From positions 294,996,001 through 295,060,000 of the forward strand of contig CM126205.1 in assembly GCA_052327205.1 (NCBI GenBank): a stretch of DNA of 64,000 nt, written 5' to 3'. Origin of the DNA: Somniosus microcephalus (Eukaryota). The notes beneath the pieces are model-generated. The model was not told where the DNA came from. It saw only the letters and a list, made by a program, of their open reading frames with translations, and did no database searches. The translations under genes were made by a program, and so were the position numbers. Of this stretch, positions 10,728 through 49,649 are shown in pieces (position 1 is the first letter of the stretch; each line of letters starts with the position of its first letter).

Positions 10728-10820
10728 ATTTGGATGATCAGCCATGATCTCATTAAATGGCAGAACAGGCTCGAGGGGCCGAATGGCCTACTCCTGTTCC
10801 TATCTTCTATGTTTCTATGT

Positions 10821-17963: not shown

Positions 17964-19473
17964 ATATATATATACACATATATAAAAAATATTAACAAAG
18001 TAATCATCAAGCATGTTTCATCATTATAATCTCACTGATGAATAAATATTCTCAATCCTTGGTAGGAAAAGAGAAAATGAGCTAATATAGATTTGTACTT
18101 TTGGCACCTGTTCGTTATCTTTTCATGTTAAAATAACTGAAATGATCCTCTGGAATTTTTGCAGTGACTTTACAACATGACTGTTGTCTGTTCATCACAA
18201 ACTTGGGCCAGAAACATAGGCAGGATGCAATTTGCAATTAACTTTAATAAAAAAAAAATGTTTTTCATGGCATGAATTCAGTGAGTACTGCTTGCCTCCA
18301 ATTCTTGCATCAATGCCTCAGGCCATTTCCACACATTATACCCACTTCACACTTGTACTGCAAATTTGCCTTTGTTGTGAATTTGCAGCACTGTCAAGAC
18401 ATCTGTCGAAGTATAATTCACGAGGAGTTATTTCTTGTGGTGAAATATTAGAACAAATAATCCCTTCACTTGGACTGTAAAGCAGAAAATTTGCATCAAA
18501 ATACAATAAACAACAGATGTGAAATGCTGCTGATTTAAAAAAAATCAATTATGTTTTATTATTTTCAAGTTTAGCAAAACAAATCCTTCCCAGCTGCAAC
18601 AGATCCATTTTATATCTACAATACCAGCTGCTAGAATTTGTGGTTTACAGATACACTTACATTGCAGATTACAAAAAAAATCAAAACCATTGGCAATTTT
18701 ATCCATTCTTCTGATACATTTTGATGCACAACCGACTTCTGTTAAAGTAATCGTTAGTTTTAATGATCAATTCCTTAAAATTATCAAAATCTGTTTTTTG
18801 AAATCACAACCCATCTGATATGTCAGTGCAATCATTTATAACGTTCAGTTATGATACATGTGTAATAGCAATTCACCAATGTTGAAAAACCTCAGTTGTA
18901 ACACTGTTAATCTGCACAATCGCATATGAATGGATAATGAGATTTTTAATTTGCTGCTAATTGGTTTATTATAAATGGGCCGAAGAGTGACTCAATGGGG
19001 TCACCGTGATCCCGTTGCACAGCACTGGAGCCACTGCTCCAAAGACACTCAGTGCGCCACCTTGCAAGTGATCTGACTTTGCCCATAATGGAAGATGAGA
19101 TCATTATAATATTTACATTTTGTTCTTAAAATATTGAAGCAGTACCACATTGACCTTTGAGGTCAAAATCCACAGAAGGAGGAAGTGAACGATGCAAAGC
19201 GCTGGTGTGTGCTGAGCAGTACTTTGTGGATCATGGGATCAGCAGTATATAATCGAGGATTGCTTCATTCTGAATTACTAATCATGGGCAAACCGTTGAT
19301 TATAACAGGATGCCCCCATACCTTTATTGTAGTGTTCGAGTATAAATAATACACGGACTGCAGGAGAACAATAATAACAGGTATTTACTGAACAGAGGGT
19401 ACTCTTTTATTTGGACCCCCAAAAAAAACAATTCGACTGTAAATAAACAAAAGTTCAACTAAAGCTTAACAAA

Positions 19474-22400
19474 TCAAATTAAAATTTGGTTTTCCGTGTT
19501 GATGATGCACTCCAGTCCCCGCGGTGCCCACCGGTCGCGGAAATACTCAAGCGCACCGGCGGGCACCGCATGCTCCATCTCCAGGGCCACCCGGGCGCGA
19601 ACATGGCCGCGGAAGAGAGGCAGGCAATCCGGCTGGACGACCCCCTCGACCGCCCGCTGCCTGGACCAATTGATGGCTCTTTTAGCCAGGCCCAGGAGCA
19701 GGCCCACAAGGAGGTCCTCCAACCTGTCCGCTCCCCTCCGCACCGGGTGACCGTAGATCAAGCGCGTGGGACTGAAGTGCAACCAAAAATCGAGGAGCAG
19801 CCCCTTCAAGTAGTGAAAGAGGGGCTGCAACCTCTCACATTCCATATAAACGTGAAACATGGACTCCTCCAGGCCGCAAAAAATGCAGGCGGCCTGGGAG
19901 TCCGTGAACCTACTTAAAACCTTATTGCACGGGACCGCTCCATGCAACACCCTCCAGGCCAAGTCCCCGATGGAACAAGGGAGGACTCCCGCGTAGCGAG
20001 CCCTCCATTGGGGACCTCCGCCACCGCCAGTTGGCAAGACACCACGCCAAGGCGTGTCCGGACGGGAGACGAAGATGGCAAAGTGGAGTGTGTGTGTGCA
20101 GGAGCAGCCCGTACAGGAAACCCCTCCGCGCGGAATGAAAAGGCACGGAGGGTATTTCCTCGAGACGGCTCAAGTTGTGAGGCGCCGGTTCCCGAGGGGT
20201 GTTTCGGGGCCGGGCGCCGATGAGGAATTCCGTCCGAACAGGGGTAAGCTCGGACGGGATCACCCCACGTGCTTGAGCTGCCTCGATACACCTAGTGGAG
20301 TCGGGGCCCAGTGCCGCTTTCACCGATTCGATGGCTTCGACCGCGAGCCGGACGTTGGCCCAGGACAGGCGCCGCGCCAGCTCCTCCGGCGCCATCCAGC
20401 CCGCTCCTCCGCCATCGAGCAGGTCCCCGACTCTGGTCACCTTGCCAAGCACAGCCCTGCCCTCCGCCAGCCGCCCGAACCCGCGTTCGTGGAGGTGCGG
20501 ATTCCTGAGCAGCGGCTCCCGAAGGAGAGCCGCCGCTCCTGACGGGGGAGAGCTCCGCCTGGAAGCGACGTAGTTCCAAACCCATAGCAGTTCCTGGTAG
20601 AAGACAGGCAGCTCCCACAGGCCGGCACGCCTGCCGCCCACTTTCGCGAACAGGAGCTGCGTGTCGCACTTGAGGCCGTGCAGCTGGCGGAAGAAAAACG
20701 TCGCCAGCGCACACCATCTCGGAGGATTCTCGACGTACAGGTATCTCTGCAGCGTCTGAAGACGGAAAGTCGCAGCCTGGGTGCGAAGGCACACCAATGC
20801 CTGACCGCCCTCTCTAAGCGGGAGACACAGAACCGCGGCAGAGACCCAGTGCTTCCTTTTGTCCCAGAAGAAGTCGATGAGCTTCTTCTGCATCTTGGCG
20901 ACAAACGCAGGGGGAGGGATCAAAGTGACCAACCGGTACCACAACATGGCGGCATCCAGCTGGTTTATGACCAGCGCTCGACCCCTGTAGGACAACACTC
21001 GGAGCAGTCCTGTCCAGCGTCCTAGGCGAGCGGTGACTTTGGCCTCCAGCTCTTGCCAGTTCGCCGGCCAGGCGTCCTCGGCAGGGCTAAGGTAGACTCC
21101 CAAATAGAGGAGGTGCGTGGTGCTCCAGGCGAAAGGCCTGGACTCCTCCGGCAGGGAGTCCACCCGCCACTGACCCACCAGGAGTCCGGAACATTTCTCC
21201 CAGTTGATCTTGGCGGAGGATGCGTCCGAGTAAATCTGCTGGCATTCCCGCATCCTCCGCAAGTCAGCGGGATCCGTGACCGTGAGGAGCACGTCATCGG
21301 CGTAAGCCGAGAGGACTACCTCCACGCCCGGCCCTTGCAGAGCCAGTCCCGTCAACCTCTTCCGCAAGAGGCGCAGGAATGGCTCCACGCAAACGGCGTA
21401 TAACTGACCGGACATGGGGCATCCCTGACGCACCCCCCTCCCGAAGCGAAGGGGCGCCGTCAAGGACCCGTTAACTTTAATCAGACACTCTGCGGCGGCG
21501 TACAAAAGTCGGATCCGGGCGATGAAATGCGTCCCGAACCCGAATGCGCGCAGAGTCCCGAAGAGATACTCGTGATCCACCCTTTCGAATGCCTTCTCCT
21601 GATCCAGGGAGAGGAAGGTGACCGACAGACCAGCCCTCTGGGAGTGGTGGACCAGGTCCCAGACCAGATGGATGTTATCATGGATGGTCCGGCCCGGGAC
21701 CGTGTAGGACTGGTCAGGTTGGATCATGTGGGCCAGCACGGTGCCAAGGCGAGCAGACATGGCCCTGGCAAAGATTTTATAGTCCGTGCTGAGGAGGGAG
21801 TCCGGGCGCCAGTTCTTAAGGAGGCGGAGATCGCCCTTCTTAGGCAGCAGGACAATGACCGCCCTGCGCCAAGTGAGGGGCATCTCCCCGGTCGCCAAAC
21901 TTTCCCCCAGGACCCGCGCGCAGTCGCCCCCCAAGACGTCCCAGAACATCCTGTGGAACTCCACGGTAAGCCCGTCCAACCCCGGGGACTTTCCCCTAGA
22001 GAGCTGGTGGAGGGCGCCGGTCAGCTCCGCCAGGCTTAGCGGAGCGTCCAGTTTTTCGGCGCCCTCCGGGCTGACCTTCAGCAGGTCCTCCCACAAAACT
22101 CTGCGTGCATCCTCGCTGGACGGATCCGGAGAGAAAAGAGCCCCGTAGTAGGCGCGGGTCTCCGCGCTGATTCCCTCCGGATCCGAGACCAGAGATCTGT
22201 CGTCGACCAGCAGCCCCAAGAGCTGCTTACGGACCCCCCGTCTTTTTTCCAGCGAGTAGAAGAAGGGGGAGCCGCGGTCCAGGTCCCGCAGGAGCTGGAT
22301 CCACGACCTCACGTACGCGCCTCGGGACCCGACGAGCTGCAGGTCCTTCAGCGCGCCCTTCTTCTCTTCGTACACCTTCCGCAGGGCCGGGTCCTCGACG

Positions 22401-23377
22401 ACCTGACCGAGGCAGGACTCCAGGTCGAGCATCTCCTTCTCCAACCGCCCGACCCGGGCCTCCCGCCTCTTGGTCGACCCCTTCGCGTACTCCTGACAGA
22501 AGAGACGGATGTGAGCCTTGCCCACATCCCACCATAGCCTCAAGGAGGGGAAGCCCCCCTGCTTCCTTCTCCAGTCGGCCCAGAATCGATGCAACGAATC
22601 CCGGAACCGTGCGTCCTCCAGCAGCAGGTTGTTAAAATGCCAGTACGCATACCCCCCCCGCGCACGCAGCGGAGCGAGCTCCGCCCATACCAGGTGGTGG
22701 TCCGTGCACGGCACCGGCCGCATGGAAGCTGCCGGAACGCAGGAGACGTACGCCCGGGAAATGTAAAGGCGGTCGATTCTGGACCTTCCTCCCCCAGACC
22801 TCACGCTAGTGAAGGCGCTGGAGTCGGGGTGGAGATTTCGCCAGACGTCCACCAAGTCGAAGGACCCAACCAGGTCCCTCAACTTCTCCATCGCCGCCGG
22901 GCTTCGCGGGGGACCCGAACGGTCCCTCGCCTCGAGGGTGCAGTTAAAATCCCCCCCGAGGATGACGCACTCGCCCACGTCGATGGAGCCCAAGAGAGCG
23001 GACACTTCTTCGAAGAAGCGCACTTGCTGCGCACTGGTCTGAGGGGCGTACACGTTCACTAGATGGAGCGGCACGCCCCCCAGGCGAACAGTGACCTGGA
23101 GCAAGCGGCCCGGCACGTGCTCCTTGACCCCCAAGATCTCCGGCTGAAAATGCGGGGCCAGCAAGATAGCCACCCCGCTGGAATTGTTGGAGAGGTGACT
23201 CATGCTGACCCCTCCTTGCCACTCCAGGAGCCACGTGGCTTCGTCTCCCGGAACGGTGTGGGTTTCTTGCAGGAAGCACACCGCATACTTCCCGTCCCGA
23301 AGGACCGAGAAGTTATTGAATCTGCGGCGCGCCTCCCTGCTGCCGTTGATGTTGAGGCTGGCTATGGTTATCTTCAT
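19474..23377 (-). pseudogene. Tx1 ORF2, copy 1 (APE-RT-Zn), frameshifted near 20090
   Basis: A (GT) expansion at about 20088-20098 splits the ORF. It has KAFE instead of KAFD and WRPDS instead of WRPVS. Confidence 0.92.
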
Positions 23378-23408
23378 GTCAGAAGCATAGTGCAACCTCT
23401 ACCTACAC

Positions 23409-25548
23409 CTAACGGGGGGAGGAAGCGCAGCCGCTGGTCCGCCGCCACTTCCTCAGCAGCCCAGTGAGAAACGTTGTGAGCCGACGCAGCTCGAGCGGGA
23501 TCACACCCTCGTCCGCGCCCAAGATCTTAACGGCGGCGCGGACGGAATCGATGAGCAGCGCCAGCTCCGACCACCTGTCGAGGGCCAGCCGGACCTTATT
23601 GCGCTGACCCAGGCACGTGGCCATAAAATCCCGGAGTTCCCTTACGGAAATGAGGGGAGACTCGGCAAGGGGCACGAGGTCATCCATCGCCACGTCGGCG
23701 CTGGAGTCCGAATCGTCCTCCGTGCCCATCACCGAGTCCCCATCCTCCTCCAGGGGGTCGTCACCAGCGGCCGACCCGTCCGCCGCACAGTGCGAAGCGA
23801 ACGACTCGGCCGCGCCAGCCAGCCCCGCCTCCGCCCGGATCCCACCCCCAGGATCGGCGGCAGAGGATTTCTCCCTGGGCTCCTCTAGGGGTGCCAGGCC
23901 AGAAGACGGCGGCGGTTCAGAGCTCCCCTCCGCCTCAGACGCCGGAACGACCGGAGAGAGAACAATTTCCAGCTCCTCCAGTACGTCCGGCACCAGAGAC
24001 GCAGCCAGGGGGCCATCCTCCTCCCCGCCACCAACCTCCGACCCAGCGGACGGGGGGTTTTGAATTAAAAGCTCGACCAGGACGAGCATCCCCTGGGAGA
24101 CGTCCGGGTCGCATTGGGCGAGCTCATTATCCTCGAGCTCGCCCGACCCAGCCCCCAGGCTGCCCGACCCGGCGAGGGGTAACGACACCGATAAAAGGTC
24201 AACTTCAATTACTGCCGCGGGTTGTTCCGCAACCCCCCCCACGGGCAGGGTCTCATCCCCATCCCCGGGAGGCACGTGCTGGACAGACACATCTGCCTCA
24301 GCCTCCCGAGGGACAGGCGACCCCTGCCGATCGCTGGTGATGACGACAGCGCTGGCGGGGGGGGGGGGGCGCAGTACCCGCGGCGGGCGACGACTCCCCC
24401 TGCTCGGAGGGACCTTCCTCCTCCCGGTCCTCCTCCTCATCCAGGGGGTCGCGCCTTCTTTTTAGCACGGAGGGAGCGAGGGAGACCTCCATGTCTGCAA
24501 AGGCGTCCTCCTCGACTCCCTCCGGCTGAGCAGGTTTGTCGGGCCCGAGCCCGGCCGCAGGTATTGGCATTACCGCTGCGGCGGTTGCGGCCACAGGCTC
24601 GGGCACGGGGCCCCTCCCGCTCACATCTGCCCTGATCAACTCCGCGAGGAGCGCGGGTGTAAGGGGCTCAAGGGGCAAGGGCTCACCATCCACGGGGGGA
24701 CCTGCCCTAAGGTGCTTCTTTTTTCCCCGCGCCTTCTTTCCGGCCGGACACGCTCCCTCCCCCCCGCCGGAGGCCTTGGTGGCATCGGCCCCCGACGTCA
24801 ACCGCGCATCAGACGTACTTGACGCGCGGGCAGATCCGGGGGGAAGGGCGGCGGCGGCGGCGCCAGCCTCGGCCGCACGAGATGATCCGGCGGCCTTGGA
24901 GGCAGGGCAGTTCCTCCTGATGTGCCCCACCTCCCTGCAGGCATGGCACCTCACACCGTCCGACGTCCAAAAGGCGCGGTAGGCGGTCCCCTCGTGGAGG
25001 ACGACGAACGCCCCTTCAGTGTCCTCCTCCCGCGCCAGCTGGATAAACAGCTGGCGCCGGAAGGAGAAGACGTGGCGAAGGCTGGCCTCCCGGAAGCCGA
25101 GCGGGATGGGCGTGATCCCCGACCTCACCTCCCCAAGTTGTCGCAAATGGGGAAGGAGGAGCTCACCAGGAACATAGGGCGGGACGTTGGAAATAATGAT
25201 CCTCTGCGCGGTGGCCTCGAGAGGATCCACCGGCAGGAAGGTCCCGCCCACGGTGAGCCCCTTGGCGACAGCCAGGGACACCGCCCGCTCCGACCCCAGG
25301 AAGAACACAGCCTTCCCATACATTTTCGAGGCCGCGACGATGGCTGAGGGGCCGACAACCCCAGCCATGGCCTTGACGCAGGCCTCGATGGTCATAGTGG
25401 GGTGAGTGTAGCTCTTCACCCCAAGCTTTTTTGTTATTAATCGAAAAGGTGACGGGGCAGCAGGAACAGCGGGAGCAGCTGTGGCTGTGGCTACCACTCT
25501 CGCATAGGTCCCAGCTGGCCCCGCCACCGGCGAAGACGCAGTCGCCAT
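23409..25548 (-). pseudogene. Tx1 ORF1, copy 1, frameshifted at a G-run near 24360
   Basis: Two ORF pieces (24298-25590 and 23409-24440) join to match the 718-aa ORF1 of copy 3. It has two 9-bp deletions. Confidence 0.88.
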
Positions 25549-26625
25549 TCTGGGGTGCTTTTTTTTTTTTTTTTTAAGGGCTACACTCACCCCAAGTCAC
25601 AGGCCTGAAGGTGTTAATGGCCTCGGTGTATATATATATTTTTTTGTCCTCTATTGAGCAGAGGGAGCTGATTAAAATGAGGACACACCTCTCTCCTTAT
25701 TGATTTAAATTGGGAGAGGAGCCCTCACCCCTCTGCTCAATTGGCAATTAATAAAATAGATGAAACTAAGGTGCCTTAGAAAGACAGGCAGAGAGAGACA
25801 AAGAGAGAGAGAGAGAGGTGGGGGGGGTGGGAAGGAGGGAGGACGCAAAGGGCAGTGTTGCCACTCAGGATGGTGGGTGGGTGTTGGCAGGGTTGCACTC
25901 TCCGATGGAAAAAGTCTTTGGCGGTCTTCTGGCAGGGGGAGAAGACGTCTTCATCTGGAAAAGCTGGAGAAGCCCAGGCTTAGTCCTGCAACAGGTCTTA
26001 ACGATGTAATTAAATTAAATTAAGGACTTCACCTTGGGCAGCTCCAAGCTCTCCCAGGGCAGGCAATAGAAGGGATGCTAATTAGTGGTGTGTGTGGCCT
26101 AGCTTTTAACAAGAGCACACACACACTACACCCCTTGATGATCCGGCCTTGCTTCTTCTTTTCTCCCCCCACCTAAAATACAAAGTCTTGGGAGAGTGCC
26201 CCAAATAACACCCACCTGTAGATGTTCCGGATGAAGTTTTCTTCCCTCCTTTCAAGCAGTTGGTTTCTCTCCCCTCTCTCCCTCTCCTGAAGTGGAGGCC
26301 AATTTGGGGAGGCAGTGATAGAAAGGCCTCTCCCCTGGTTGATGTTGATGTAGGCCTCCTTTCTCCTTCTCCTTCTCCTCCTCTGTCCTCTCTCTCCAGG
26401 CACCTCAGTTGATGTAATGATGGTGGAGTTGGTGGTGGTGGTGGTGGTTCAACGTTCTCCTCCTCTTCCTGGTCAGGGGACCACCACTTTAATCCACTCT
26501 CCAAAGTCTGGCTGCTCCCTCTGCTCGTGCTTGTAGCTGAACAGAGGGTACTCTTTTATTTGGACTCAAAAAAAAAAACCCAATCCAACTGTAAATAAAC
26601 AAAAGTTCAACTAAAGCTTAACAAA

Positions 26626-30525: not shown

Positions 30526-30556
30526 GTCAGAAGCATAGTGCAACCTCTACCTACAC

Positions 30557-32715
30557 CTAACGGGGGGAGGAAGCGCAGCCGCTGGTCAGCCGCCACTTCC
30601 TCAGCAGCCCAGTGAGAAACGTTGTGAGCCGACGCAGCTCGAGCGGGTTCACACCCTCGTCCGCGCCCATGATCTTAACGGCGGCGCGGACGGAATCGAT
30701 GAGCAGCGCCAGCTCCGACCACCTGTCGAGGGCCAGCCGGACCTTATTGCGCTGACCCAGGCACGTGGCCATAAAATCCCGGAGTTCCCTTACGGAAATG
30801 AGGGGAGACTCGGCAAGGGGCACGAGGTCATCCATCGCCACGTCGGCGCTGGAGTCCGAATCGTCCTCCGTGCCCATCACCGAGTCCCCATCCTCCTCCA
30901 GGGGGTCGTCACCAGCGGCCGACCCGTCCGCCGCGCAGTGCAAAGCGAACGACTCGGCCGCGCCAGCCAGCCCCGCCTCCGCCCGGATCCCACCCCCAGG
31001 ATCGGCGGCAGAGGATTTCTCCCTGGGCTCCTCTAGGGGTGCCGGGCCAGAAGACGGCGGCGGTTCAGAGCTCCCCTCCGCCTCAGACGCCGGAACGACC
31101 GGAGAAACCGGGGAGAGAACAATTTCCAGCTCCTCCAGTACGTCCGGCACCAGAGACGCAGCCAGGGGGCCATCCTCCTCCCCGCCACCAACCTACGACC
31201 CAGCGGACGGCGGGTTTTGAATTAAAAGCTCTACCAGGACGAGCATCCCCTGGGAGACGTCCGGGTCGCATTGGGCGAGCTCATTATCCTCGAGCTCGCC
31301 CGACCCAGCCCCCAGGCTGCCCGACCCGGCGAGGGGTAACGACACCGATAAAAGGTCAACTTCAATTACTGCCGCGGGTTGTTCCGCAACCCCCCCCACG
31401 GGCAGGGTCTCATCCCCATCCCCGGGAGGCACGTGCTGGACAGACACATCTGCCTCAGCCTCCAGAGGGACAGGCGACCCCTGCCGATCGCTGGTGATGA
31501 CTACAGCGCTGGGGGGGCGGGGGGGGGCGCAGTACCCGCGGCGGGCGACGACTCCCCCTGCTCAGAGGGACCTTCCTCCTCCCGGTCCTCCTCCTCATCC
31601 AGGGGGTCGCGCCTTCTTTTTAGCACGGAGGGAGCGAGGGAGACCTCCATGTCTGCAAAGGCCTCCTCCTCGACTCCCTCCGGCGGAGCAGGTTTGTCGG
31701 GTTCCTCGGGCCCGAGCCCGGCCGCAGGTATTGGCATTACCGCTGCGGCGGTTGCGGCCACAGGCTCGGGCACGGGGCCCCTCCCGCTCACATCTGCCCT
31801 GATCAACTCCGCGAGGAGCGCGGGTGTAAGGGGCTCAAGGGGCAAGGGCTCACCATCCACGGGGGGACCTGCCCTAAGGTGCTTCTTTTTTCCCCGCGCC
31901 TTCTTTCCGGCCGGACACGCTCCCTCCCCCCCGCCGGAGGCCTTGGTGGCATCGGCCCCCGACGTCAACCGCGAATCAGACGTACTTGACGCGCGGGCAG
32001 ATCCGGGGGGAAGGGCGGCGGCGGCGGCGCCAGCCTCGGCCGCACGAGATGATCCGGCGGCCTTGGAGGCAGGGCAGTTCCTCCTGATGTGCCCCACCTC
32101 CCTGCAGGCATGGCACCTCACACCGTCCGACGTCCAAAAGGCGCGGTAGGCGGTCCCCTCGTGGAGGATGACGAACGCCCCTTCAGTGTCCTCCTCCCGC
32201 GCCAGCTGGATAAACAGCTGGCGCCGGAAGGAGAAGACGTGGCGAAGGCTGGCCTCCCGGAAGCCGAGCGGGATGGGCGTGATCCCCGACCTCACCTCCC
32301 CAAGTTGTCGCAAATGGGGAAGGAGGAGCTCACCAGGAACATAGGGCGGGACGTTGGAAATAATGATCCTCTGCGCGGTGGCCTCGAGAGGATCCACCGG
32401 CAGGAAGGTCCCGCCCACGGTGAGCCCCTTGGCGACAGCCAGGGACACCGCCCGCTCCGATCCCAGGAAGAACACAGCCTTCCCATACATTTTTGAGGCC
32501 GCGACGATGGCTGAGGGGCCGACAACCCCAGCCATGGCCTTGACGCAGGCCTCGATGGTCATAGTGGGGTGAGTGTAGCTCTTCACCCCAAGCTTTTTTG
32601 TTATTAATCGAAAAGGTGACGGGGCAGCAGGAACAGCGGGAGCAGCTGTGGCTGTGGCTACCACTCTCGCATAGGTCCCGGCTGGCCCCGCCACCGGCGA
32701 AGATGCAGTCGCCAT
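30557..32715 (-). pseudogene. Tx1 ORF1, copy 2, frameshifted at G-runs near 31510-31528
   Basis: A 404-aa N-terminal part plus downstream pieces match copy 3 ORF1. The homopolymer frameshift could be a sequencing error. Confidence 0.8.
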
Positions 32716-33793
32716 TCTGGGGTGCTTTTTTTTTAATTTTTTTTTTAAGGGCTACACTCACCCCAAGTCACAGGCCTGAAGGTGTTAATAGCCTCGGTGT
32801 ATATATATATATTTTTTTGTCCTCTATTGAGCAGAGGGAGCTGATTAAAATGAGGACACACCTCTCTCCTTATTGATTTAAATTGGGAGAGGAGCCCTCG
32901 CCCCTCTGCTCAATTGGCAATTAATAAAATAGATGAAACTAAGGTGCCTTAGAAAGACAGGCAGAGAGAGACAAAGAGAGAGAGAGAGGTGGGGGGGTGG
33001 GAAGGAGGGAGGCCGCAAAGGGCAGTGTTGCCACTCAGGATGGTGGGTGGGTGTAGGCAGGGTTGCACTCTCCGATGGAAAAAGTCTTTGGTGATGGTGG
33101 TCTTCTGGCAGGGGGAGAAGACGTCTTCACCTGGAAAAGCTGGAGAAGCCCAGGCTTAGTCCTGCAACAGGTCTTAACGATGTAATTAAATTAAATTAAG
33201 GACTTCACCTTGGGCAGCTCCAAGCTCTCCCAGGGCAGGCAATAGAAGGGATGCTAATTAGTGGTGTGTGTGGCCTAGCTTTTAACAAGAGCACACACAC
33301 ACTACACCCCTTGATGATCCGGCCTTGCTTCTTCTTTTCTCCCCCCACCTAAAATACAAAGTCTTGGGAGAGTGCCCCAAATAACACCCACCTGTAGATG
33401 TTCCGGATGAAGTTTTCTTCCCTCCTTTCAAGCAGTTGGTTTCTCTCCCCTCTCTCCCTCTCCTGAAGTGGAGGCCAATTTGGGGAGGCAGTGATAGAAA
33501 GGCCTCTCCCCTGGTTGATGTTGATGTAGGCCTCCTTTCTCCTTCTCCTCCTCTGTCCTCTCTCTCCAGGCACCTCAGTTGATGTAATGATGGTGGAGTT
33601 GGTGGTGGTGGTGGTGGTTCAACGTTCTCCTCCTCTTCCTGGTCAGGGGACCACCACTTTAATCCACTCTCCAAAGTCTGGCTGCTCCCTCTGCTCGTGC
33701 TTGTAGCTGAACAGAGGGTACTCTTTTATTTGGACCCAAAAAAAAAACCAATTCGACTGTAAATAAACAAAAGTTCAACTAAAGCTTAACAAA

Positions 33794-36700
33794 TCAAATT
33801 AAAATTTGGTTTTCCGTGTTGATGATGCACTCCAGTCCCCGCGGCGCCCACCGGTCGCGGAAATACTCAAGCGCACCGGCGGACACCGCGTGCTCCATCT
33901 CCAGGGCCACCCGGGCGCGAACATGGCCGCGGAAGAGATGCAGGCAATCCGGCTGGACGACCCCCTCGACCGCCCGCTGCCTGGACCAATTGATGGCTCT
34001 TTTAGCCAGGCCCAGGAGCAGGCCCACAAGGAGGTCCTCCAACCTGTCCGCTCCCCTCCGCACCGGGTGACCGTAGATCAAGAGCGTGGGACTGAAGTGC
34101 AACCAAAAATCGAGGAGCAGCCCCTTCAAGTAGTGAAAGAGGGGCTGCAACCTCTCACAATCCATATAAACGTGAAACACGGACTCCTCCAGGCCGCAAA
34201 AAATGCAGGCGGCCTGGGAGTCCGTGAACCTACTTAAAACCTTATTGCACGGGACCGCTCCGTGCAACACCCTCCAGGCCAAGTCCCCGATGGAACAAGG
34301 GAGGACTCCCGCATAGAGAGCCCTCCATTGGGGACCTCCGCTACCGCCGGTCGGCAAAACGCCACGCCAAGGCGTGTCCGGACGGTAGACGAAGATGGCA
34401 AAGTGGAGAGTGTGCAGGAGCAGCCCGTACAGGAAACCCCTCCGCGCGGAATGAAAAGGCACGGAGGGTATTTCCTCGAGACGGCTCAAGTTGTGAGGCG
34501 CCGGTTCCCGAGGGGAGTTTCGGGGCCGGGCGCCGATGAGGAATTCCGTCCGAACGGGGGTAAGCTCGGACGGGATCGCCCCACGTGCTTGAGCCGCCTC
34601 GATACACCTAGTGGAGTCGGGGCCCAGTGCCGCTTTTACCGATTCGATGGTTTCGACCGCGAGCTGGACGTTGGCCCAGGACAGGCGCCGCGCCAGCTCC
34701 TCTGGCGCCATCCAGCCCGCTCCTCCGCCATCGAGCAGGTCCCCGACTCTGGTCACCTTGCCAGCCACAGCCCTACCCTCCGCCAGCCGCCCGAACCCGT
34801 GTTCGTGGAGGTGCGGATTCCTGAGCAGCGGCTCCCGAAGGAGAGCCGCCGCTCCTGACGGGGGAGAGCTCCGCCTGGAAGCGACGTAGTTCCAAACCCA
34901 TAGTAGTTCCTGGTAGAAGACAGGCAGCTCCCGCAGGCCGGCACGCCTGCTGCCCACTTTCGCAAACAGGAGCTGCGTGTCGTAATTGAGGCCATGCAGC
35001 TGGCGGAAGAAAAACGTCGCCAGCGCACACCATCTCGGAGGATTCTCGACGTACAGGTATCTCTGCAGCGTCTGAAGACGGAAAGTCGCAGCCTGGGTGC
35101 GAAGGCACACCAGCGCCTGACCGCCCTCCCTAAGCGGGAGACACAGAACCGCGGCAGAGACCCAGTGCTTCCTTTTGTCCCAGAAGAAGTCGATGAGCTT
35201 CTTCTGAATCTTGGCGACAAACGCAGGGGGAGGGATCAAAGTGACCAACCGGTACCACAACATGGCGGCCACCAGCTGGTTTATGACTAGCGCTCGACCC
35301 CTGTAGGACAACACTCGGAGCAGTCCTGTCCAGCGTCCTAGGCGAGCGGTGACTTTGGCCTCCAGCTCTTGCCAGTTCGCCGGCCAAGCGTCCTCGGCAG
35401 GGCTAAGGTAGACTCCCAAATAGAGGAGGTGCGTGGTGCTCCAGGCGAAAGGCCTGAACTCCTCCGGCAGGGAGTCCACCCGCCACTGACCCACCAGGAG
35501 TCCGGAACATTTCTCCCAGTTGATCTTGGCGGAGGATGCGTCCGAGTAAATCTGCTGGCATTCCCGCATCCTCCGCAAGTCAGCGGGATCCGTGACCGTG
35601 AGGAGCACGTCATCGGCGTAAGCCGAGAGGACCACCTCCACGCCCGGCCCTTGCAGAGCCAGTCCCGTCAACCTCTTCCGCAAGAGGCGCAGGAAAGGCT
35701 CCACGCAAATGGCATATAACTGACCGGACATGGGGCATCCCTGACGCACCCCCCTCCCGAAGCGAAGGGGCGCCGTCAAGGACCCGTTAACTTTAATCAG
35801 ACACTCCGCGGCGGTGTACAGAAGTCGGATCCGGGCGACGAAATGCGTCCCGAACCCGAATGCGCGCAGAGTCCCGAAGAGATACTCGTGATCCACCCTG
35901 TCGAACGCCTTCTCCTGATCCAGGGAAAGGAAGGCGACCGACAGACCAGCCCTCTGGGAGTGGTGGACCAGGTCCCGGACCAGATGGATGTTATCGTGGA
36001 TGGTCCGGCCCGGGACCGTGTAGGACTGGTCGGGGTGGATCATGTGGGCCAGCACGGTGCCAAGGCGAGCAGACATGGCCCTGGCAAAGATTTTATAGTC
36101 CGTGCTGAGGAGGGAGACCGGGCGCCAGTTCTTAAGGAGGCGGAGATCGCCCTTCTTAGGCAGCAGGACAATGACCGCCCTGCGCCAAGAGAGGGGCATC
36201 TCCCCGGTCGCCAAACTTTCCCCCAGGACCCGCGCGTAGTCGCCCCCCAAGACGTCCCAGAACGCCCTGTGGAACTCCACGGTCAGCCCGTCCAGCCCCG
36301 GGGACTTTCCCCTAGAGAGCTGGCGGAGGGCGCCGGTCAGCTCCGCCAGACTTAGCGGAGCGTCCAATTTTTCGGCGCCCTCCGGGCCAACCTTCGTCAG
36401 GTCCTCCCACAAAACTCTGCGCGCATCCTCGCTGGACGGATCCGGAGAGAACAGAGCCCCGTAATAGGCGCGGGTCTCCGCGTTGATTCCCTCCGGATCC
36501 GAGACCAGAGATCCGTCGTCGGCCAGCAGCCCCAAGAGCTGCTTACGGACCCCCCGTCTTTTTTCCAGCGAGTAGAAGAAGGGGGAGCCGCGGTCCAGGT
36601 CCCGCAGGAGCTGGATCCGCGACCTCACGTACGCGCCTCGGGACCCGACGAGCTGCAGGTCCTTCAGCGCGCCCTTCTTCTCTTCGTACACCTTCCGCAG

Positions 36701-37693
36701 GGCCGGGTCCTCGACGACCTGACCGAGACGGGACTCCAGGTCGAGCACCTCCTTCTCCAACCGCCCGACCCGGGCCTCCCGCCTCTTGGTCGACCCCTTC
36801 GCGTACTCCTGACAGAAGAGACGGATGTGAGCCTTGCCCACATCCCACCATAGCCTCAAGGAGGGGAAGCCCCCCTGCTTCCTTCTCCAGTCGGCCCAGA
36901 ATCGACGAAACGAATCCCGGAACCGTGCGTCCTCCAGCAGCAGGTTGTTAAAATGCCAGTACACGGACCCCCCCCGCGTGCGCAGCGGAGCGAGCTCCGC
37001 CCACACCAGGTGGTGGTCCGTGCACGGCACCGGCCGCATGGAAGCTGCCGGAACGCAGGAGACGAACGCCCGGGAAATGTAGAGGCGGTCGATTCTGGAC
37101 CTTCCTCCCCCAGACCTCACGCTAGTGAAGGCGCTGGAGTCGGGGTGGAGATTTCGCCAGACGTCCACCAAGTCGAAGGACCCAACCAGGTCCCTCAACT
37201 TCTCCATCGCCGCCGGGCTTCGCGGGGGACCCGAACGGTCCCTCGCCTCGAGGGTGCAGTTAAAATCCCCCCCGAGGATGACGCACTCGCCCACGTCGAT
37301 GGAGCCCAAGAGAGCGGACACTTCTTCGAAGAAGCGCACTTGCTGCGCACTGGTCTGAGGGGCGTACACGTTCACTAGATGGAGCGGCACGCCCCCCAGG
37401 CGAACAGTGACATGGAGCAAGCGGCCCGGCACGTGCTCCTTGACCCCCAAGATCGCCGGCTGAAAATGCGGGGCCAGCAAGATAGCCACCCCGCTGGAAT
37501 TGTTGGAGAGGTGACTCATGCTGACCCCTCCTTGCCACTCCAGGAGCCACGTGGCTTCGTCTCCCGGAACGGTGTGGGTTTCTTGCAGGAAGCACACCGC
37601 ATACTTCCCGTCCCGAAGGACCGAGAAGTTATTGAATCTGCGGCGCGCCTCCCTGCTGCCGTTGATGTTGAGGCTGGCTATGGTTATCTTCAT
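33794..37693 (-). CDS. Tx1 ORF2, copy 3: APE endonuclease, RT and Zn finger
   Basis: All APE and RT motifs are intact (LQETH, GGDFN, TDH, KAFD, QGCP, YADD). C-terminal CxxC...H...C. Confidence 0.96.
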   Translation of the reverse strand: MKITIASLNINGSREARRRFNNFSVLRDGKYAVCFLQETHTVPGDEATWLLEWQGGVSMSHLSNNSSGVAILLAPHFQPAILGVKEHVPGRLLHVTVRLGGVPLHLVNVYAPQTSAQQVRFFEEVSALLGSIDVGECVILGGDFNCTLEARDRSGPPRSPAAMEKLRDLVGSFDLVDVWRNLHPDSSAFTSVRSGGGRSRIDRLYISRAFVSCVPAASMRPVPCTDHHLVWAELAPLRTRGGSVYWHFNNLLLEDARFRDSFRRFWADWRRKQGGFPSLRLWWDVGKAHIRLFCQEYAKGSTKRREARVGRLEKEVLDLESRLGQVVEDPALRKVYEEKKGALKDLQLVGSRGAYVRSRIQLLRDLDRGSPFFYSLEKRRGVRKQLLGLLADDGSLVSDPEGINAETRAYYGALFSPDPSSEDARRVLWEDLTKVGPEGAEKLDAPLSLAELTGALRQLSRGKSPGLDGLTVEFHRAFWDVLGGDYARVLGESLATGEMPLSWRRAVIVLLPKKGDLRLLKNWRPVSLLSTDYKIFARAMSARLGTVLAHMIHPDQSYTVPGRTIHDNIHLVRDLVHHSQRAGLSVAFLSLDQEKAFDRVDHEYLFGTLRAFGFGTHFVARIRLLYTAAECLIKVNGSLTAPLRFGRGVRQGCPMSGQLYAICVEPFLRLLRKRLTGLALQGPGVEVVLSAYADDVLLTVTDPADLRRMRECQQIYSDASSAKINWEKCSGLLVGQWRVDSLPEEFRPFAWSTTHLLYLGVYLSPAEDAWPANWQELEAKVTARLGRWTGLLRVLSYRGRALVINQLVAAMLWYRLVTLIPPPAFVAKIQKKLIDFFWDKRKHWVSAAVLCLPLREGGQALVCLRTQAATFRLQTLQRYLYVENPPRWCALATFFFRQLHGLNYDTQLLFAKVGSRRAGLRELPVFYQELLWVWNYVASRRSSPPSGAAALLREPLLRNPHLHEHGFGRLAEGRAVAGKVTRVGDLLDGGGAGWMAPEELARRLSWANVQLAVETIESVKAALGPDSTRCIEAAQARGAIPSELTPVRTEFLIGARPRNSPREPAPHNLSRLEEIPSVPFHSARRGFLYGLLLHTLHFAIFVYRPDTPWRGVLPTGGSGGPQWRALYAGVLPCSIGDLAWRVLHGAVPCNKVLSRFTDSQAACIFCGLEESVFHVYMDCERLQPLFHYLKGLLLDFWLHFSPTLLIYGHPVRRGADRLEDLLVGLLLGLAKRAINWSRQRAVEGVVQPDCLHLFRGHVRARVALEMEHAVSAGALEYFRDRWAPRGLECIINTENQILI

Positions 37694-37724
37694 GTCAGAA
37701 GCATAGTGCAACCTCTACCTACAC

Positions 37725-39881
37725 CTAACGGGGCGAGGAAGCGCAGCCGCTGGTCAGCCGCCACTTCCTCAGCAGCCCAGTGAGAAACGTTGTGAGCCGA
37801 CGCAGCTCGAGCGGGTTCACACCCTCATCCGCGCCCAAGATCTTAACGGCGGCGCGGACGGAATCGATGAGCAGCGCCAGCTCCGACCACCTGTCGAGGG
37901 CCAGCCGGACCTTATTGCGCTGACCCAGGCACGTGGCCATAAAATCCCGGAGTTCCCTTACGGAAATGAGGGGAGACTCGGCAAGGGGCACGAGGTCATC
38001 CATCGCCACGTCGGCGCTGGAGTCCGAATCATCCTCCGTGCCCATCACCGAGTCCCCATCCTCCTCCAGGGGGTCGTCACCAGCGGCCGACCCGTCCGCC
38101 GCGCAGTGCGAAGCGAACGACTCGGCCGCGCCAGCCAGCCCCGCCTCCGCCCGGATCCCACCCCCAGGATCGGCGGCAGAGGATTTCTCCCTGGGCTCCT
38201 CTAGGGGTGCCGGGCCAGAAGACGGCGGCGGTTCAGAGCTCCCCTCCGCCTCAGACGCCGGAACGACCGGAGAAACCGGGGAGAGAACAATTTCCAGCTC
38301 CTCCAGTACGTCCGGCACCAGAGACGCAGCCAGGGGGCCATCCTCCTCCCCGCCACCAACCTCCGACCCAGCGGACGGGGGGTTTTGAATTAAAAGCTCC
38401 ACCAGGACGAGCATCCCCTGGGAGACGTCCGGGTCGCATTGGGCGAGCTCATTATCCTCGAGCTCGCCCGACCCAGCCCCCAGGCTGCCCGACCCGGCGA
38501 GGGGTAACGACACCGATAAAAGGTCAACTTCAATTACTGCCGCGGGTTGTTCCGCAACCCCCCCCACGGGCAGGGTCTCATCCCCATCCCCGGGAGGCAC
38601 GTGCTGGACAGACACATCTGCCTCAGCCTCCCGAGGGACAGGCGACCCCTGCCGATCGCTGGTGATGACGACAGCGCTGGGGGGGCGGGGGGGCGCAGTA
38701 CCCGCGGCGGGCGACGACTCCCCCTGCTCGGAGGGACCTTCCTCCTCCCGGTCCTCCTCCTCATCCAGGGGGTCGCGCCTTCTTTTTAGCACGGAGGGAG
38801 CGAGGGAGACCTCCATGTCTGCAAAGGCCTCCTCCTCGACTCCCTCCGGCGGAGCAGGTTTGTCGGGTTCCTCGGGCCCGAGCCCGGCCGCAGGTATTGG
38901 CATTACCGCTGCGGCGGTTGCGGCCACAGGCTCGGGCACGGGGCCCCTCCCGCTCACATCTGCCCTGATCAACTCCGCGAGGAGCGCGGGTGTAAGGGGC
39001 TCAAGGGGCAAGGGCTCACCATCCACGGGCGGACCTGCCCTAAGGTGCTTCTTTTTTCCCCGCGCCTTCTTTCCGGCTAGACACGCTCCCTCCCCCCCGC
39101 CGGAGGCCTTGGTGGCATCGGCCCCCGACGTCAACCGCGCATCAGACGTACTTGACGCGCGGGCAGATCCGGGGGGAAGGGCGGCGGCGGCGGCGCCAGC
39201 CTCGGCCGCACGAGACGGTCCGGCGGCCTTGGAGGCAGGGCAGTTCCTCCTGATGTGCCCCACCTCCCTGCAGGCATGGCACCTCACACCGTCCGACGTC
39301 CAAAAGGCGCGGTAGGCGGTCCCCTCGTGGAGGACGACGAACGCCCCTTCAGTGTCCTCCTCCCGCGCCAGCTGGATAAACAGCTGGCGCCGGAAGGAGA
39401 AGACGTGGCGAAGGCTGGCCTCCCGGAAGCCGAGCGGGATGGGCGTGATCCCCGACCTCACCTCCCCAAGTTGTCGCAAATGGGGAAGGAGGAGCTCACC
39501 AGGAACATAGGGCGGGACGTTGGAAATAATGATCCTCTGCGCGGTGGCCTCGAGAGGATCCACCGGCAGGAAAGTCCCGCCCACGGTGAGCCCCTTGGCG
39601 ACAGCCAGGGACACCGCCCGCTCCGACCCCAGGAAGAACACAGCCTTCCCATACATTTTCGAGGCCGCGACGATGGCTGAGGGGCCGACAACCCCAGCCA
39701 TGGCCTTGACGCAGGCCTCGATGGTCATAGTGGGGTGAGTGTAGCTCTTCACCCCAAGCTTTTTTGTTATTAATCGAAAAGGTGACGGGGCAGCAGGAAC
39801 AGCGGGAGCAGCTGTGGCTGTGGCTACCACTCTCGCATAGGTCCCGGCTGGCCCCGCCACCGGCGAAGATGCAGTCGCCAT
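37725..39881 (-). CDS. Tx1 ORF1, copy 3 (gag-like, CCHC zinc knuckle, long acidic disordered region)
   Basis: 718 aa with IVAASKMYGKAVFFL, IIISNVPPY, HVFSFRRQ and CHACREVGHIRRNC. Confidence 0.93.
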   Translation of the reverse strand: MATASSPVAGPAGTYARVVATATAAPAVPAAPSPFRLITKKLGVKSYTHPTMTIEACVKAMAGVVGPSAIVAASKMYGKAVFFLGSERAVSLAVAKGLTVGGTFLPVDPLEATAQRIIISNVPPYVPGELLLPHLRQLGEVRSGITPIPLGFREASLRHVFSFRRQLFIQLAREEDTEGAFVVLHEGTAYRAFWTSDGVRCHACREVGHIRRNCPASKAAGPSRAAEAGAAAAALPPGSARASSTSDARLTSGADATKASGGGEGACLAGKKARGKKKHLRAGPPVDGEPLPLEPLTPALLAELIRADVSGRGPVPEPVAATAAAVMPIPAAGLGPEEPDKPAPPEGVEEEAFADMEVSLAPSVLKRRRDPLDEEEDREEEGPSEQGESSPAAGTAPPRPPSAVVITSDRQGSPVPREAEADVSVQHVPPGDGDETLPVGGVAEQPAAVIEVDLLSVSLPLAGSGSLGAGSGELEDNELAQCDPDVSQGMLVLVELLIQNPPSAGSEVGGGEEDGPLAASLVPDVLEELEIVLSPVSPVVPASEAEGSSEPPPSSGPAPLEEPREKSSAADPGGGIRAEAGLAGAAESFASHCAADGSAAGDDPLEEDGDSVMGTEDDSDSSADVAMDDLVPLAESPLISVRELRDFMATCLGQRNKVRLALDRWSELALLIDSVRAAVKILGADEGVNPLELRRLTTFLTGLLRKWRLTSGCASSPR

Positions 39882-40879
39882 TCTGGGGTGCTTTTTTTAA
39901 GGGCTACACTCACCCCAAGTCACAGGCCTGAAGGTGTTAATAGCCTCGGTGTATATATATATATTTTTTTGTCCTCTATTGAGCAGAGGGAGCTGATTAA
40001 AATGAGGACACACCTCTCTCCTTATTGATTTAAATTGGGAGAGGAGCCCTCGCCCCTCTGCTCAATTGGCAATTAATAAAATAGATGAAACTAAGGTGCC
40101 TTAGAAAGACAGGCAGAGAGAGACAAAGAGAGAGAGAGAGGTGGGGGGGTGGGAAGGAGGGAGGCCGCAAAGGGCAGTGTTGCCACTCAGGATGGTGGGT
40201 GGGTGTAGGCAGGGTTGCACTCTCCGATGGAAAAAGTCTTTGGTGATGGTGGTCTTCTGGCAGGGGGAGAAGACGTCTTCACCTGGAAAAGCTGGAGAAG
40301 CCCAGGCTTAGTCCTGCAACAGGTCTTAACGATGTAATTAAATTAAATTAAGGACTTCACCTTGGGCAGCTCCAAGCTCTCCCAGGGCAGGCAATAGAAG
40401 GGATGCTAATTAGTGGTGTGTGTGGCCTAGCTTTTAACAAGAGCACACACACACTACACCCCTTGATGATCCGGCCTTGCTTCTTCTTTTCTCCCCCCAC
40501 CTAAAATACAAAGTCTTGGGAGAGTGCCCCAAATAACACCCACCTGTAGATGTTCCGGATGAAGTTTTCTTCCCTCCTTTCAAGCAGTTGGTTTCTCTCC
40601 CCTCTCTCCCTCTCCTGAAGTGGAGGCCAATTTGGGGAGGCAGTGATAGAAAGGCCTCTCCCCTGGTTGATGTTGATGTAGGCCTCCTTTCTCCTTCTCC
40701 TCCTCTGTCCTCTCTCTCCAGGCACCTCAGTTGATGTAATGATGGTGGAGTTGGTGGTGGTGGTGGTGGTTCAACGTTCTCCTCCTCTTCCTGGTCAGGG
40801 GACCACCACTTTAATCCACTCTCCAAAGTCTGGCTGCTCCCTCTGCTCGTGCTTGTAGCTGAACAGAGGGTAACTTACG

Positions 40880-40913
40880 ACTGAAATACAGAAGCCTGCT
40901 ATGGCTTTATATA
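40880..40913 (-). promoter_or_regulatory. TATA plus initiator core promoter of the solo LTR, pointing into the Tx1 array
   Basis: TATATAAA starts at 40913. TCAGT Inr has its A(+1) at 40882, exactly 31 nt downstream. Confidence 0.7.
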
Positions 40914-41556
40914 CAGGGGTGGTCACTGCCGGTACTGCAGTATAGAATCAGTTCTTCTCTTAAAGGTACATACACAACATTTATATAAGCAAATAAAAAT
41001 CAGATCTGGTCACCAGTCAGAGCTCATCCAATTATATTTATATTTTCTAATGGACATCTTTCAATAAAGAGATTAAATATTTATTACAGTGGGTTCTTGT
41101 ATTTATTTCCCAAATTTAGCAAGGAAAACAATGTGGGGCATTAAAAAAACCCTAGGTGAAAGAATAAGAAAACGATAGTGAGCAGGATCATAGTTCTTTA
41201 ACTATTAAGATTGTTCTTGCTTTCCATCTTTTGAGACAAAAAATATTCCTCATGACTGGCTACACATTTCCATTTCCCAAAGTGTGGCAAGAGGATCCTT
41301 GAAATTCCTCAATAAGTCCATCAAATCTATTTGGACAGCATCCTCTGACACTATGGGGAGAATTTTAACCTCAAAAATGGGCGGGTTTGGGTTGGGTGGG
41401 AGGATAAAGTGTTAAAAATCTGAATCACAACCCCAACTGGCCTCCAGCCCGGCCACTTCCAGTTTTAACGGAGGCGGGATGGTGGGGGGGGGGCAGGGGG
41501 TGCAACGGGGGTGGGGGGGGTGCAGAAGGTGGGGTGGAGGGGAAGGGGGTGGGGTG

Positions 41557-43944: not shown

Positions 43945-44229
43945 GGGTGGAGGGGCGGGCAGCCAATCCATTCCCAGGAAGTGGTTTGCCACTTTAAATA
44001 TGATAATGAGGCTGGAAGCCTCAGCTTTAACTTGCTTTGCAGGCTTAACTGTGGCCGGCCGGGGTTTCCGGGCTTTCTGCCCCCCTCCCCGGGGTTGGGA
44101 ATCGGACCCCCCCCCCAACGGGATTGGACCACCCCCACAGGGCCGAGGATCGGACCTACCTGGTCCTGCGGCCTTTTGTCCACCATTCCCCCCCGCCACC
44201 CCTGACTGCCAGTGACGTCACACACACGC

Positions 44230-46957: not shown

Positions 46958-47226
46958 GTGAAATGAGGAGGAATTTCTTCACCCAGAGAGTGGTGAACCT
47001 GTGGAATTCTCTGTCACAGAGGACGGTGGAGGCCAGTTCATTAAATATATTCAAGAAAGAGTTGGATATATTTCTTGAGGCTAAAGGGATCAAGGGATAT
47101 GGGAAGAAGACAGGGACCGGGTACTTAATTTGGATGATCAGCCATGATCTCATTGAATGGTGGAGCAGGTTTGAAGGGCCGAATGGCCTACTCCTGCTCC
47201 TATCTTCTATGTTTCTATGTTTCTAT
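46958..47226 (+). mobile_element. CR1 3' end fragment (same family as 622-10820)
   Basis: EMRRNFFTQRVVNLWNSL, then the 3'UTR and (TTCTATGT)n. Confidence 0.92.
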
Positions 47227-49365: not shown

Positions 49366-49649
49366 TTATCATGACCTCAATCAGTGTCCAACACTGATTT
49401 GACGCACAACCTGCCATTTTCAATGTTGCCGTTCCATTTAACGGCCTCTCCAAACACGAACAGCTGAACGTGTGGTATTTAAAGGGATCATCGTCAACAT
49501 CTTGCAGCTGAGATGGTTTTTCAGTTTGATTGGCTCTGTGTAAGTTTATGCAACAGTTTGGAGATTTCTACAGTTATTTAAAGTTGGTGAGGTGACAGGG
49601 AGTGGTGCTGCAAGTGGAGAAGGACTTAAAGGGCTCTGCTCAGACAACT

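Follow-up and report, generated by a model that had tools for sequence, protein, structure and literature searches.

Three full-length copies of a LINE akin to Tx1 lie head to tail inside a solo LTR in the 64,000-nucleotide stretch of Somniosus microcephalus DNA analysed here (the window). We propose, with a probability of about 0.6, that a Tx1-clade LINE inserted repeatedly into this one solo-LTR site and that the array was reshuffled later, copies 2 and 3 being of similar, recent age and copy 1 combining a 3' half that is old with 5' sequence that is young. The minus-strand copies measure 7135, 7156 and 7138 bp (copies 1, 2 and 3, respectively; Table 1), and the array described in an earlier note on this DNA, with three full-length copies of about 7.1 kb and four identical 14-bp repeats, is real. 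The 14-mer is present at exactly four sites in the window, cannot be extended, has no occurrence on the other strand of the window and is kept as a target-site duplication (TSD) at all four junctions of the array. The sequence before it ends in TAAGT at the native flank and in AAGAG at the inner junctions. No additional LINE copies or target sites were found elsewhere in the window.

Table 1. Coordinates of the array, its target and their signals within the window.
Feature	Position	Strand	Basis
Solo LTR TSD ATAAA, downstream copy	19323..19327	-	5-bp repeat
Solo LTR 3' part	19328..19387	-	AGTAAA, GT-rich stretch, CA end
AGTAAA poly(A)-signal variant, overlapping TSD end	19384-19389	-	motif
TSD 14 bp, distal copy	19388..19401	-	exact repeat
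Copy 1, distal, full-length mosaic	19402..26536	-	repeat comparison, ORFs
673-bp tract, copy 1 = copy 2 (copy 2 29915-30587)	22767..23439	-	P=5e-5 vs uniform placement
TSD 14 bp, copy 2/copy 1 junction	26537..26550	-	exact repeat
Copy 2, full-length	26551..33706	-	repeat comparison, ORFs
TSD 14 bp, copy 3/copy 2 junction	33707..33720	-	exact repeat
Copy 3, LTR-promoter-proximal, full-length, both ORFs open	33721..40858	-	repeat comparison, ORFs
Copy 3 ORF2, 1299 aa: APE endonuclease, RT, C-terminal zinc finger	33794..37693	-	Pfam + motifs
Copy 3 ORF1, 718 aa, one CCHC knuckle at aa 201	37725..39881	-	ORF + motif
TSD 14 bp, proximal; sole TSD retaining native upstream flank	40859..40872	-	exact repeat + flank
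Solo LTR 5' part, LTR positions 1-121 of 181	40859..40979	-	TG start, promoter motifs
GTAAGT in solo LTR 5' part	40873-40878	-	motif
Inr-like TCAGT; predicted +1 at 40882	40880-40884	-	motif reading per PMC3601003
TATA box, TATATAAA, in solo LTR 5' part	40906-40913	-	motif reading per PMC3601003
Solo LTR TSD ATAAA, upstream copy	40980..40984	-	5-bp repeat

Taken together, the flanks of the array form a 181-bp solo LTR bearing its own 5-bp TSD (ATAAA). Its TG...CA termini are 8-bp inverted repeats (7/8 match), and such termini with a 5-bp TSD were seen at 2/2192 control sites and, among 3000 shuffled sequences, in 0.4%; when a TSD of 4-6 bp is permitted, the rates are 38/2192 and 1.5%, with a range of 0.1-1.7% across nulls. 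The LTR signals, whose order and motifs were read following PMC3601003, run from TATA/Inr to poly(A) signal to GT-rich stretch, the poly(A) signal being an AGTAAA variant, as no AATAAA is found inside the solo LTR. The LINE array is inserted between the TATA/Inr and this poly(A) signal; the TATA-to-Inr spacing is 31 nt and copy 3 begins at the predicted +25. Judged from these sequences, the promoter beside the array appears to belong to the solo LTR and not to a host gene. A host mini-gene or first intron (TATA, 5-nt exon, GTAAGT, CAG) was set aside on account of the inverted TG..CA ends and the 5-bp TSD found in this stretch. Among the 118 ORFs in the flanks that reach 62 aa, one has a Pfam match, a Harbinger transposase, although short host exons may be present. 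A host RNA-gene target was rejected (no Rfam family reaches its gathering score anywhere in the window), as was an origin of the LTR from either Gypsy element in the window, where no other significant LTR match was found (best hit E=0.74).

In agreement with the earlier note, both ORFs of copy 3 are open. They follow a 5'UTR of about 1 kb rich in simple repeats, and an AATAAA stands 10 nt before the 3' end of this copy, which has no poly(A) tail. ORF1 shares 46-47% identity with two turtle proteins over about 25% of its length. In ORF2, PF03372 and PF00078 score above the Pfam cut-off and PF13966 below it, and the catalytic motifs read as intact. ORF2 is 50% identical to the Xenopus Tx1 ORF2 over 100% of its length, its nearest named relatives being from Heterodontus (74%) and Hemitrygon (69%), and an RT tree of 15 rows with a midpoint root, without Keno, Kibi, Koshi, Dewa or mammalian L1 rows, groups it with Xenopus Tx1 in an 8-row clade (97/97). 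The Tx1 clade has a separate ORF1 with a CCHC knuckle, and this trait is present here together with an APE-RT-zinc finger ORF2. These comparisons place the array copies in the Tx1 clade of non-LTR retrotransposons.

The earlier note read the array as an age gradient. Private substitutions number 106, 28 and 18 in the whole copies 1, 2 and 3, and disabling lesions are absent from copy 3, affect ORF1 in copy 2 and affect both ORFs in copy 1. A clean polarised chronological record, with copies added beside a borrowed promoter and divergence rising stepwise with distance, would account for these counts, which track position, for those of the 3' 3.4 kb (columns 3802-7169; 89, 17 and 7, copy 2 vs 3 p=0.064) and for the TATA-Inr spacing and copy 3 start given above. 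We nevertheless consider such a record quite unlikely. The gradient is absent from the 5' 3.8 kb (columns 1-3801; 17, 11 and 11, p=0.40), copies 2 and 3 do not differ significantly overall (p=0.18), and three tracts of copy 1 summing to 2224 bp hold no private substitution. The many private changes claimed for copy 1 are there, but only its 3' half has them in excess, and what stands of the gradient is that this 3' half is older; no significant ranking of copies 2 and 3 emerges. When these two are not separable, the chance of the most diverged copy being the distal one is 1/3, and polarity cannot be shown from a single array (n=1).

The frameshifts are weak age markers, since each of the three is located in a simple repeat and could reflect slippage or assembly error. 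In copy 1, where both ORFs are frameshifted (416 and 1151 aa for ORF1 and ORF2) and the noted KAFD>KAFE change is confirmed as D598E, they fall in poly-C (~24361-24369) in ORF1 and, as a +4 change, in (CA)n (20095-20098) in ORF2. Copy 2 was said to carry only an ORF1 frameshift; its ORF2 is indeed open and its ORF1 ends at 404 aa and has a +2 slip in a poly-C tract (~31526), but ORF1 also has an in-frame stop, E507* (31193-31195).

Copy 1 is a mosaic, its divergence from copies 2 and 3 changing from about 0.75% in the 5' 3.8 kb to about 3% in the 3' 3.4 kb, with a switch near 22766. Uniform decay of this copy was rejected (chi2 p=4e-8; two-state HMM 2dlnL 54.5, the breakpoint being picked post hoc). 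The 673-bp tract identical in copies 1 and 2 belongs to the endonuclease region; copy 3 departs from the other two there at 3 sites, and the tract is likely one of conversion or recombination. It carries a derived change at the conserved endonuclease His94, which, with a derived change at Arg263 (at a CpG), is common to copies 1 and 2 and clashes with a simple tree; an expanded A-run just 5' of ORF1 is also common to both. Recombination, conversion or assembly collapse has overwritten part of the record in the array. An assembly artefact, that is, a copy number or a chimeric copy 1 produced by collapse or haplotype switch in a longer or heterozygous array, would explain the single dominant breakpoint of copy 1, as adjacent-unit collapse would give, and the homopolymer differences would resemble typical long-read errors. 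It is very improbable, as the copies differ by 0.67-1.9% with a signature of selection, unlike alleles of one insertion, and the two flanks match a single LTR that has a TSD of its own.

This signature is a deficit of nonsynonymous changes in ORF2 measured against spectrum-matched neutrality, with 44 of 87 changes in copy 1 (60.8 expected, P=2e-5) and 20 of 43 in copies 2 and 3 together (28.8 expected, P=0.003). About 24-44 of the 87 changes in copy 1 act like lineage differences and not decay, which also speaks against the polarised record. Derived amino-acid changes at strongly conserved ORF2 sites amount to 10/44, 1/5 and 0/7 in copies 1, 2 and 3, in keeping with the greater age of the 3' half of copy 1. 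By the nonsynonymous deficit, some of the divergence between copies was probably inherited from different source lineages, which supports separate retrotranspositions and weakens divergence as a clock. As purifying selection would not leave its mark through post-insertion duplication alone, repeated retrotransposition into one target is supported by the deficit and by the TSD at every junction, although conversion by dispersed copies could alternatively give the signature. Since the 5' ends and TSDs are uniform, without distinct 5' ends or TSD lengths, the case for independent insertion events rests on this signature.

The same uniformity counts against our preferred explanation, for all copies are full-length with identical junctions, whereas in the accessible text of McGurk and Barbash 2018 (PMC5932611) most non-LTR tandems of independent origin are truncated at the 5' end and the length of the TSD differs among independent R1 dimers. 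This hints that recombination copied some of the junctions. One or two insertions may instead have become three by unequal exchange or circle re-integration, followed by gene-conversion patching from dispersed copies. Identical junctions, full-length copies and the growth of R1 arrays by such expansion (PMC5932611, accessible text) fit this scenario, as do the 673-bp identity of copies 1 and 2 (P=5e-5) and that of copies 2 and 3 over alignment columns 1-969 (P=0.03), which bears out the noted match of their 5'UTRs. We consider it unlikely, because 48 differences, scattered over the whole element, separate copy 2 from copy 3, with the nonsynonymous deficit of P=0.003. It is also disfavoured in that copy 2 as a single-crossover chimera of a copy 1-copy 3 dimer (c1|c3 or c3|c1) was rejected, since such a chimera and pure copy 3 each leave 48 differences, in line with the earlier note.

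In the repeated-insertion explanation, a cartilaginous-fish Tx1-clade family would enter the 181-bp solo LTR by target-primed reverse transcription, leaving the 14-bp TSD, in at least two and probably three insertions from different source elements. After each insertion it is only at the upstream TSD that the first-strand nick would still be bordered by native sequence in both directions, and new copies would therefore tend to join at the 5' end, next to the LTR promoter. The array would then have been partly reshuffled through recombination, gene conversion or assembly collapse. About 10 bp around the bottom-strand nick are recognised by the Tx1L and R1Bm endonucleases, and base changes within 5 bp either side of it cost R1Bm its activity (PMC1919474). 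Nick-site geometry alone would suffice for addition at the 5' side, with no need of a promoter. The proposal that each insertion regenerates the target next to the promoter agrees with the TSD at every junction, but the promoter is that of the solo LTR and polarity need not be tied to it. We infer sequence-specific targeting (seen at one site), the side of addition and LTR-promoter read-through. Native context downstream of the second nick matters for R1Bm (PMC1919474); insertion at the upstream TSD forfeits this context, yet the TSD stays 14 bp, a point against the repeated-insertion explanation.

The array mostly fits known site-specific re-insertion. Like the present element, Xenopus laevis Tx1L (Tx1 ORF2, YTX2) has two ORFs with an APE-RT ORF2 and a long TSD at a TE-in-TE insertion, but it enters the DNA transposon Tx1D and not a solo LTR, and its endonuclease hairpin loop between anchors is 3 residues longer than that found here. 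In the accessible text of Kojima 2015 (PMC4494074), where a Tx1 family counts as sequence-specific when >20% of insertions have a common flank type, the crocodilian Tx1-8_Crp and Tx1-4_AMi prefer LTR retrotransposons, a likeness by description, with position within the LTR and polarity not described there. The same text proposes flank-driven transcription and reads tandem SINEU-3 copies that sandwich a TSD as sequential insertions, these being SINEs and not 7-kb autonomous copies. Drosophila R1 arrays and TE dimers share head-to-tail non-LTR copies, kept junction TSDs and double insertion followed by unequal exchange, but have an rDNA target, a 33-nt junction TSD and hundreds of units; the word "polar" is absent from the accessible text (PMC5932611). 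The telomeric HeT-A/TART/TAHRE arrays grow sequentially at the 5' end, head to tail, with upstream sequence supplying the promoter (accessible parts of PMC5537684 and bioRxiv 10.1101/782904), at a chromosome end, without TSD and with the promoter coming from the neighbour's 3'UTR and not an LTR. Polarity tied to a borrowed promoter, called unusual in the earlier note, is hence known for HeT-A (PMC5537684, accessible text), and LTR-targeting Tx1 families and TSD-flanked tandems are likewise already published. A search of largely open-access literature found no title dealing with a Tx1 family of sharks inside an LTR or with polar internal LINE arrays.

A broader, promoter-coupled reading, which we regard as doubtful, is that a chondrichthyan Tx1 family targets the LTR R region, captures its promoter and forms polarised arrays genome-wide. 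Insertion might then fall 10 nt past the LTR start site and across the poly(A) signal, the promoter reading into the newest copy; entry might conceivably always be on the promoter side, displacing older copies; and readthrough RNA with the 14-nt target at both ends could, speculatively, give the exact junctions.

If the array is ordinary, it adds a case, from a shark or ray, of a Tx1 LINE that targets other TEs, and it shows that complete 7-kb elements can pile up at a single position. Copy 1, being a mosaic, cautions against using the divergence of a whole copy as a clock in such arrays. Were the promoter-coupled reading true, it would offer a vertebrate site-specific LINE with intact ORF2 and a defined 14-bp TSD and target. 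Such a LINE would provide a natural test of two ideas, that arrays become polar through the geometry of the first nick and that LINEs make use of the promoter in the element they target, and the arrays would be polarised, promoter-coupled records of how subfamilies succeeded one another at internal positions in a vertebrate genome.

The window contains a tandem triplication at 19388-40872, seen by self-comparison as a 7.15-kb period, whose units of 7135, 7156 and 7138 bp are delimited by a 14-mer present at exactly four sites, the target-site duplication (TSD). All units lie on the minus strand, and copy 3 is followed by copy 2 and then copy 1 in the element's own direction. Pairwise divergence is 1.91% between copies 1 and 2, 1.77% between copies 1 and 3 and 0.67% between copies 2 and 3. 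The frameshifts all fall within poly-C or (CA)n runs, and the coding status given in the earlier note (copy 3 intact, ORF1 of copy 2 shifted, both frames of copy 1 shifted) was recovered, with an additional in-frame stop in copy 2 ORF1. The array is real and consists of three Tx1-clade LINE copies in tandem inside a solo LTR.

In ORF2, the APE endonuclease and RT domains keep their motifs and a CCHC lies at the C terminus; ORF1 has a single CCHC knuckle. The top full-length match to ORF2 is that of Xenopus Tx1 (50% over 100%), the nearest named relatives being fragments within proteins of Heterodontus (74%) and Hemitrygon (69%), which makes an elasmobranch host probable; in an RT tree of 15 rows, the copy pairs with Hemitrygon (96/96) within an 8-row clade including Xenopus Tx1 (97/97). 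At the 3' ends of the copies, AATAAA starts 10 nt before the end, a poly(A) tail is absent and the TSD follows directly. Compared with Xenopus Tx1L, the endonuclease hairpin loop contacting the target (~37072-37108, minus strand) has 3 residues fewer; it adjoins a tract of identity between copies 1 and 2. In a VWA7-like gene model of Hemitrygon akajei (P0013), the first ~500 aa are the Tx1 ORF2 of a related family, which suggests a sense-oriented Tx1 copy immediately upstream of VWA7, the fusion probably being made by gene prediction.

When joined, the flanks of the array form a 181-bp element running from 40979 to 19328, with a TG start, a CA end, 7 of 8 inverted terminal bases matched and a 5-bp direct repeat on the outside. 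This combination was met at 2 of 2192 control sites; among 3000 shuffles its frequency was 0.4%. With a TSD of 4-6 bp permitted, the two frequencies are 1.7% and 1.5%, respectively. In the interior, a TATA box is followed after 31 nt by an Inr-like motif, then by the signal AGTAAA and a GT-rich stretch, an arrangement reported for LTRs in passages of PMC3601003. The 14-bp TSD begins 10 nt past the predicted LTR start site and its final two bases are the opening two of AGTAAA, so that the proximal junction is without the poly(A) signal; with this signal lost, the predicted LTR transcript would read on into copy 3. A perfect GTAAGT splice-donor motif (40873-40878, minus strand) touches the proximal TSD, 5 nt past the predicted start site, and a pyrimidine tract with CAG lies at ~19358-19375; these motifs could allow RNA that starts in the LTR to be spliced into the array or across it. 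The solo LTR matched neither of the two Gypsy elements of the window, no RNA gene was found in the window, and the flanks held no host domain, the one of 118 flank ORFs with a Pfam match being a transposase.

Features of the window (positions in nt)
Feature	Position	Strand	Remarks
Tx1-clade LINE copies 1, 2, 3	19402-26536, 26551-33706, 33721-40858	-
Harbinger-like element	3701-6732		DDE_Tnp_4 transposase ORF (+, 428 aa) opposite 443-aa ORF (-)
Related LINE fragments (three)	835-1831, 8526-10821, 46959-47224		89-92% mutual identity
Gypsy-type element, internally deleted	41551-43948	+	313-bp repeats (96%)
RNase H/integrase ORF of the deleted element	41842-43494	+
Gypsy-type LTR retrotransposon	54355-59178	-	one open gag-pol frame, 1306 aa
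LTRs of this retrotransposon	54532-54782, 58747-58997	-	251 bp each, 99.2% identical

Among the other elements, a direct repeat of 181 bp (54355-54535, 58998-59178; 98.9%) takes the place of a short TSD on either side of the Gypsy-type retrotransposon with the open frame, whose 3' LTR apparently misses its final few bases; an aberrant integration, one-ended and with a long duplication, is a possible cause. The deleted Gypsy-type element lies upstream of the target, ~570 bp from the solo LTR. The 443-aa ORF of the Harbinger-like element contains a 93-bp tandem repeat, and decayed kin of this element lie near 49543-50730 and 59931-60398. The three LINE fragments, which we take to be CR1-like, include an RT domain within 8526-10394, in the second.

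The earlier note had read the array as a chronological record, with the youngest copy next to a borrowed promoter. Private substitutions number 106 in copy 1, 28 in copy 2 and 18 in copy 3, with 2 three-way sites; the difference between copies 2 and 3 is not significant (p=0.18). Those of copy 1 are strongly non-uniform (chi2 p=4e-8), the longest stretch without one covering 995 columns of the three-copy alignment (permutation P=5e-5), and a two-state HMM places a single switch at column 3802 (window ~22766). To the left, private counts for copies 1, 2 and 3 are 17, 11 and 11 (p=0.40), and to the right 89, 17 and 7. Three tracts of copy 1, 2224 bp in all, have zero private changes, which would not be expected from neutral decay of an old copy. 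The 3' half of copy 1 gives a mixed signal: nonsynonymous changes are in deficit (44/87 against 60.8 expected, P=2e-5), showing that ~24-44 copy 1 changes originated in an active lineage; the neutral-like load remaining after these is 1.3-1.9%. Relative to 13 named outgroups, 27 of the 44 amino-acid changes are derived, 6 agree with the outgroup and 11 are without call. Ten of the 44 fall at strongly conserved sites, so that the 3' half of copy 1 is older as well as of an earlier lineage. The age gradient is seen in this half-copy and is not significant between copies 2 and 3 or in the 5' half; a clean chronological record is not demonstrated, the other ranks not being separated and polarity needing more than one array.

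Of the 7 differences of copy 3 in ORF2, 3 agree with the outgroup, the derived state being common to copies 1 and 2. His94, inside a 673-bp tract identical in these two copies, is the clearest, the others being Arg263, at a CpG, and Asn404, which is weak. Because of these shared derived states, sequence was exchanged within the array, or units were merged by assembly. Crossover fits to the copies agree with the earlier argument that a single crossover in a dimer of copies 1 and 3 does not account for copy 2. Among the changes private to copy 2 or copy 3, too, nonsynonymous ones are in deficit (20/43 against 28.8 expected, P=0.003), as would be expected from descent from different active sources. 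The 5' ends and TSD lengths, identical in all copies, count against full independence: in passages of PMC5932611, independent non-LTR tandems of Drosophila are mostly 5'-truncated and the TSD length of new R1 dimers varies, in contrast to the uniformity seen here. We consider repeated targeted insertion, followed by recombination, as the most likely origin of the trimer (probability about 0.6).

The first nick of TPRT is made where the upstream flank meets the TSD. The five bases preceding the TSD are the native TAAGT at the upstream TSD only, and AAGAG, the element end, at the inner ones; after an insertion, the native first-nick context would persist at the upstream TSD only and new copies would join on the 5' side. 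According to portions of PMC1919474, Tx1L and R1Bm endonucleases read ~10 bp around the first nick, R1Bm needing 5 bp on either side, and according to portions of PMC1950540, nicking by Tx1L is almost restricted to its own site and is weaker when one side is swapped. Because only the upstream TSD retains the native five bases, a site-specific APE LINE would by default be expected to add copies on the 5' side, with no need of a promoter and with the caveat that the second-nick context is altered at this TSD. The polarity attributed to the borrowed promoter would not need it, the first-nick context being sufficient. A readthrough RNA with target sequence at both ends could yield exact, tailless junctions.

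Sections of Kojima 2015 (PMC4494074) describe Tx1 families preferring LTR retrotransposons and tandem Tx1-mobilised SINEs around a TSD, interpreted as sequential insertions, and propose that transcription starting in the flank may serve as a strategy. HeT-A arrays, in extracts of PMC5537684 and bioRxiv 10.1101/782904, lengthen as copies are added successively head to tail and draw their promoter from upstream sequence, and Tx1-into-Tx1D is a known TE-in-TE targeting in a section of PMC6719617. A literature search of limited coverage returned no title on the present shark Tx1 family or on internal LINE-array polarity. The remaining novelty is the insertion between the predicted start site and the poly(A) signal of the LTR, with a possible capture of the promoter, a reading we regard as unlikely.
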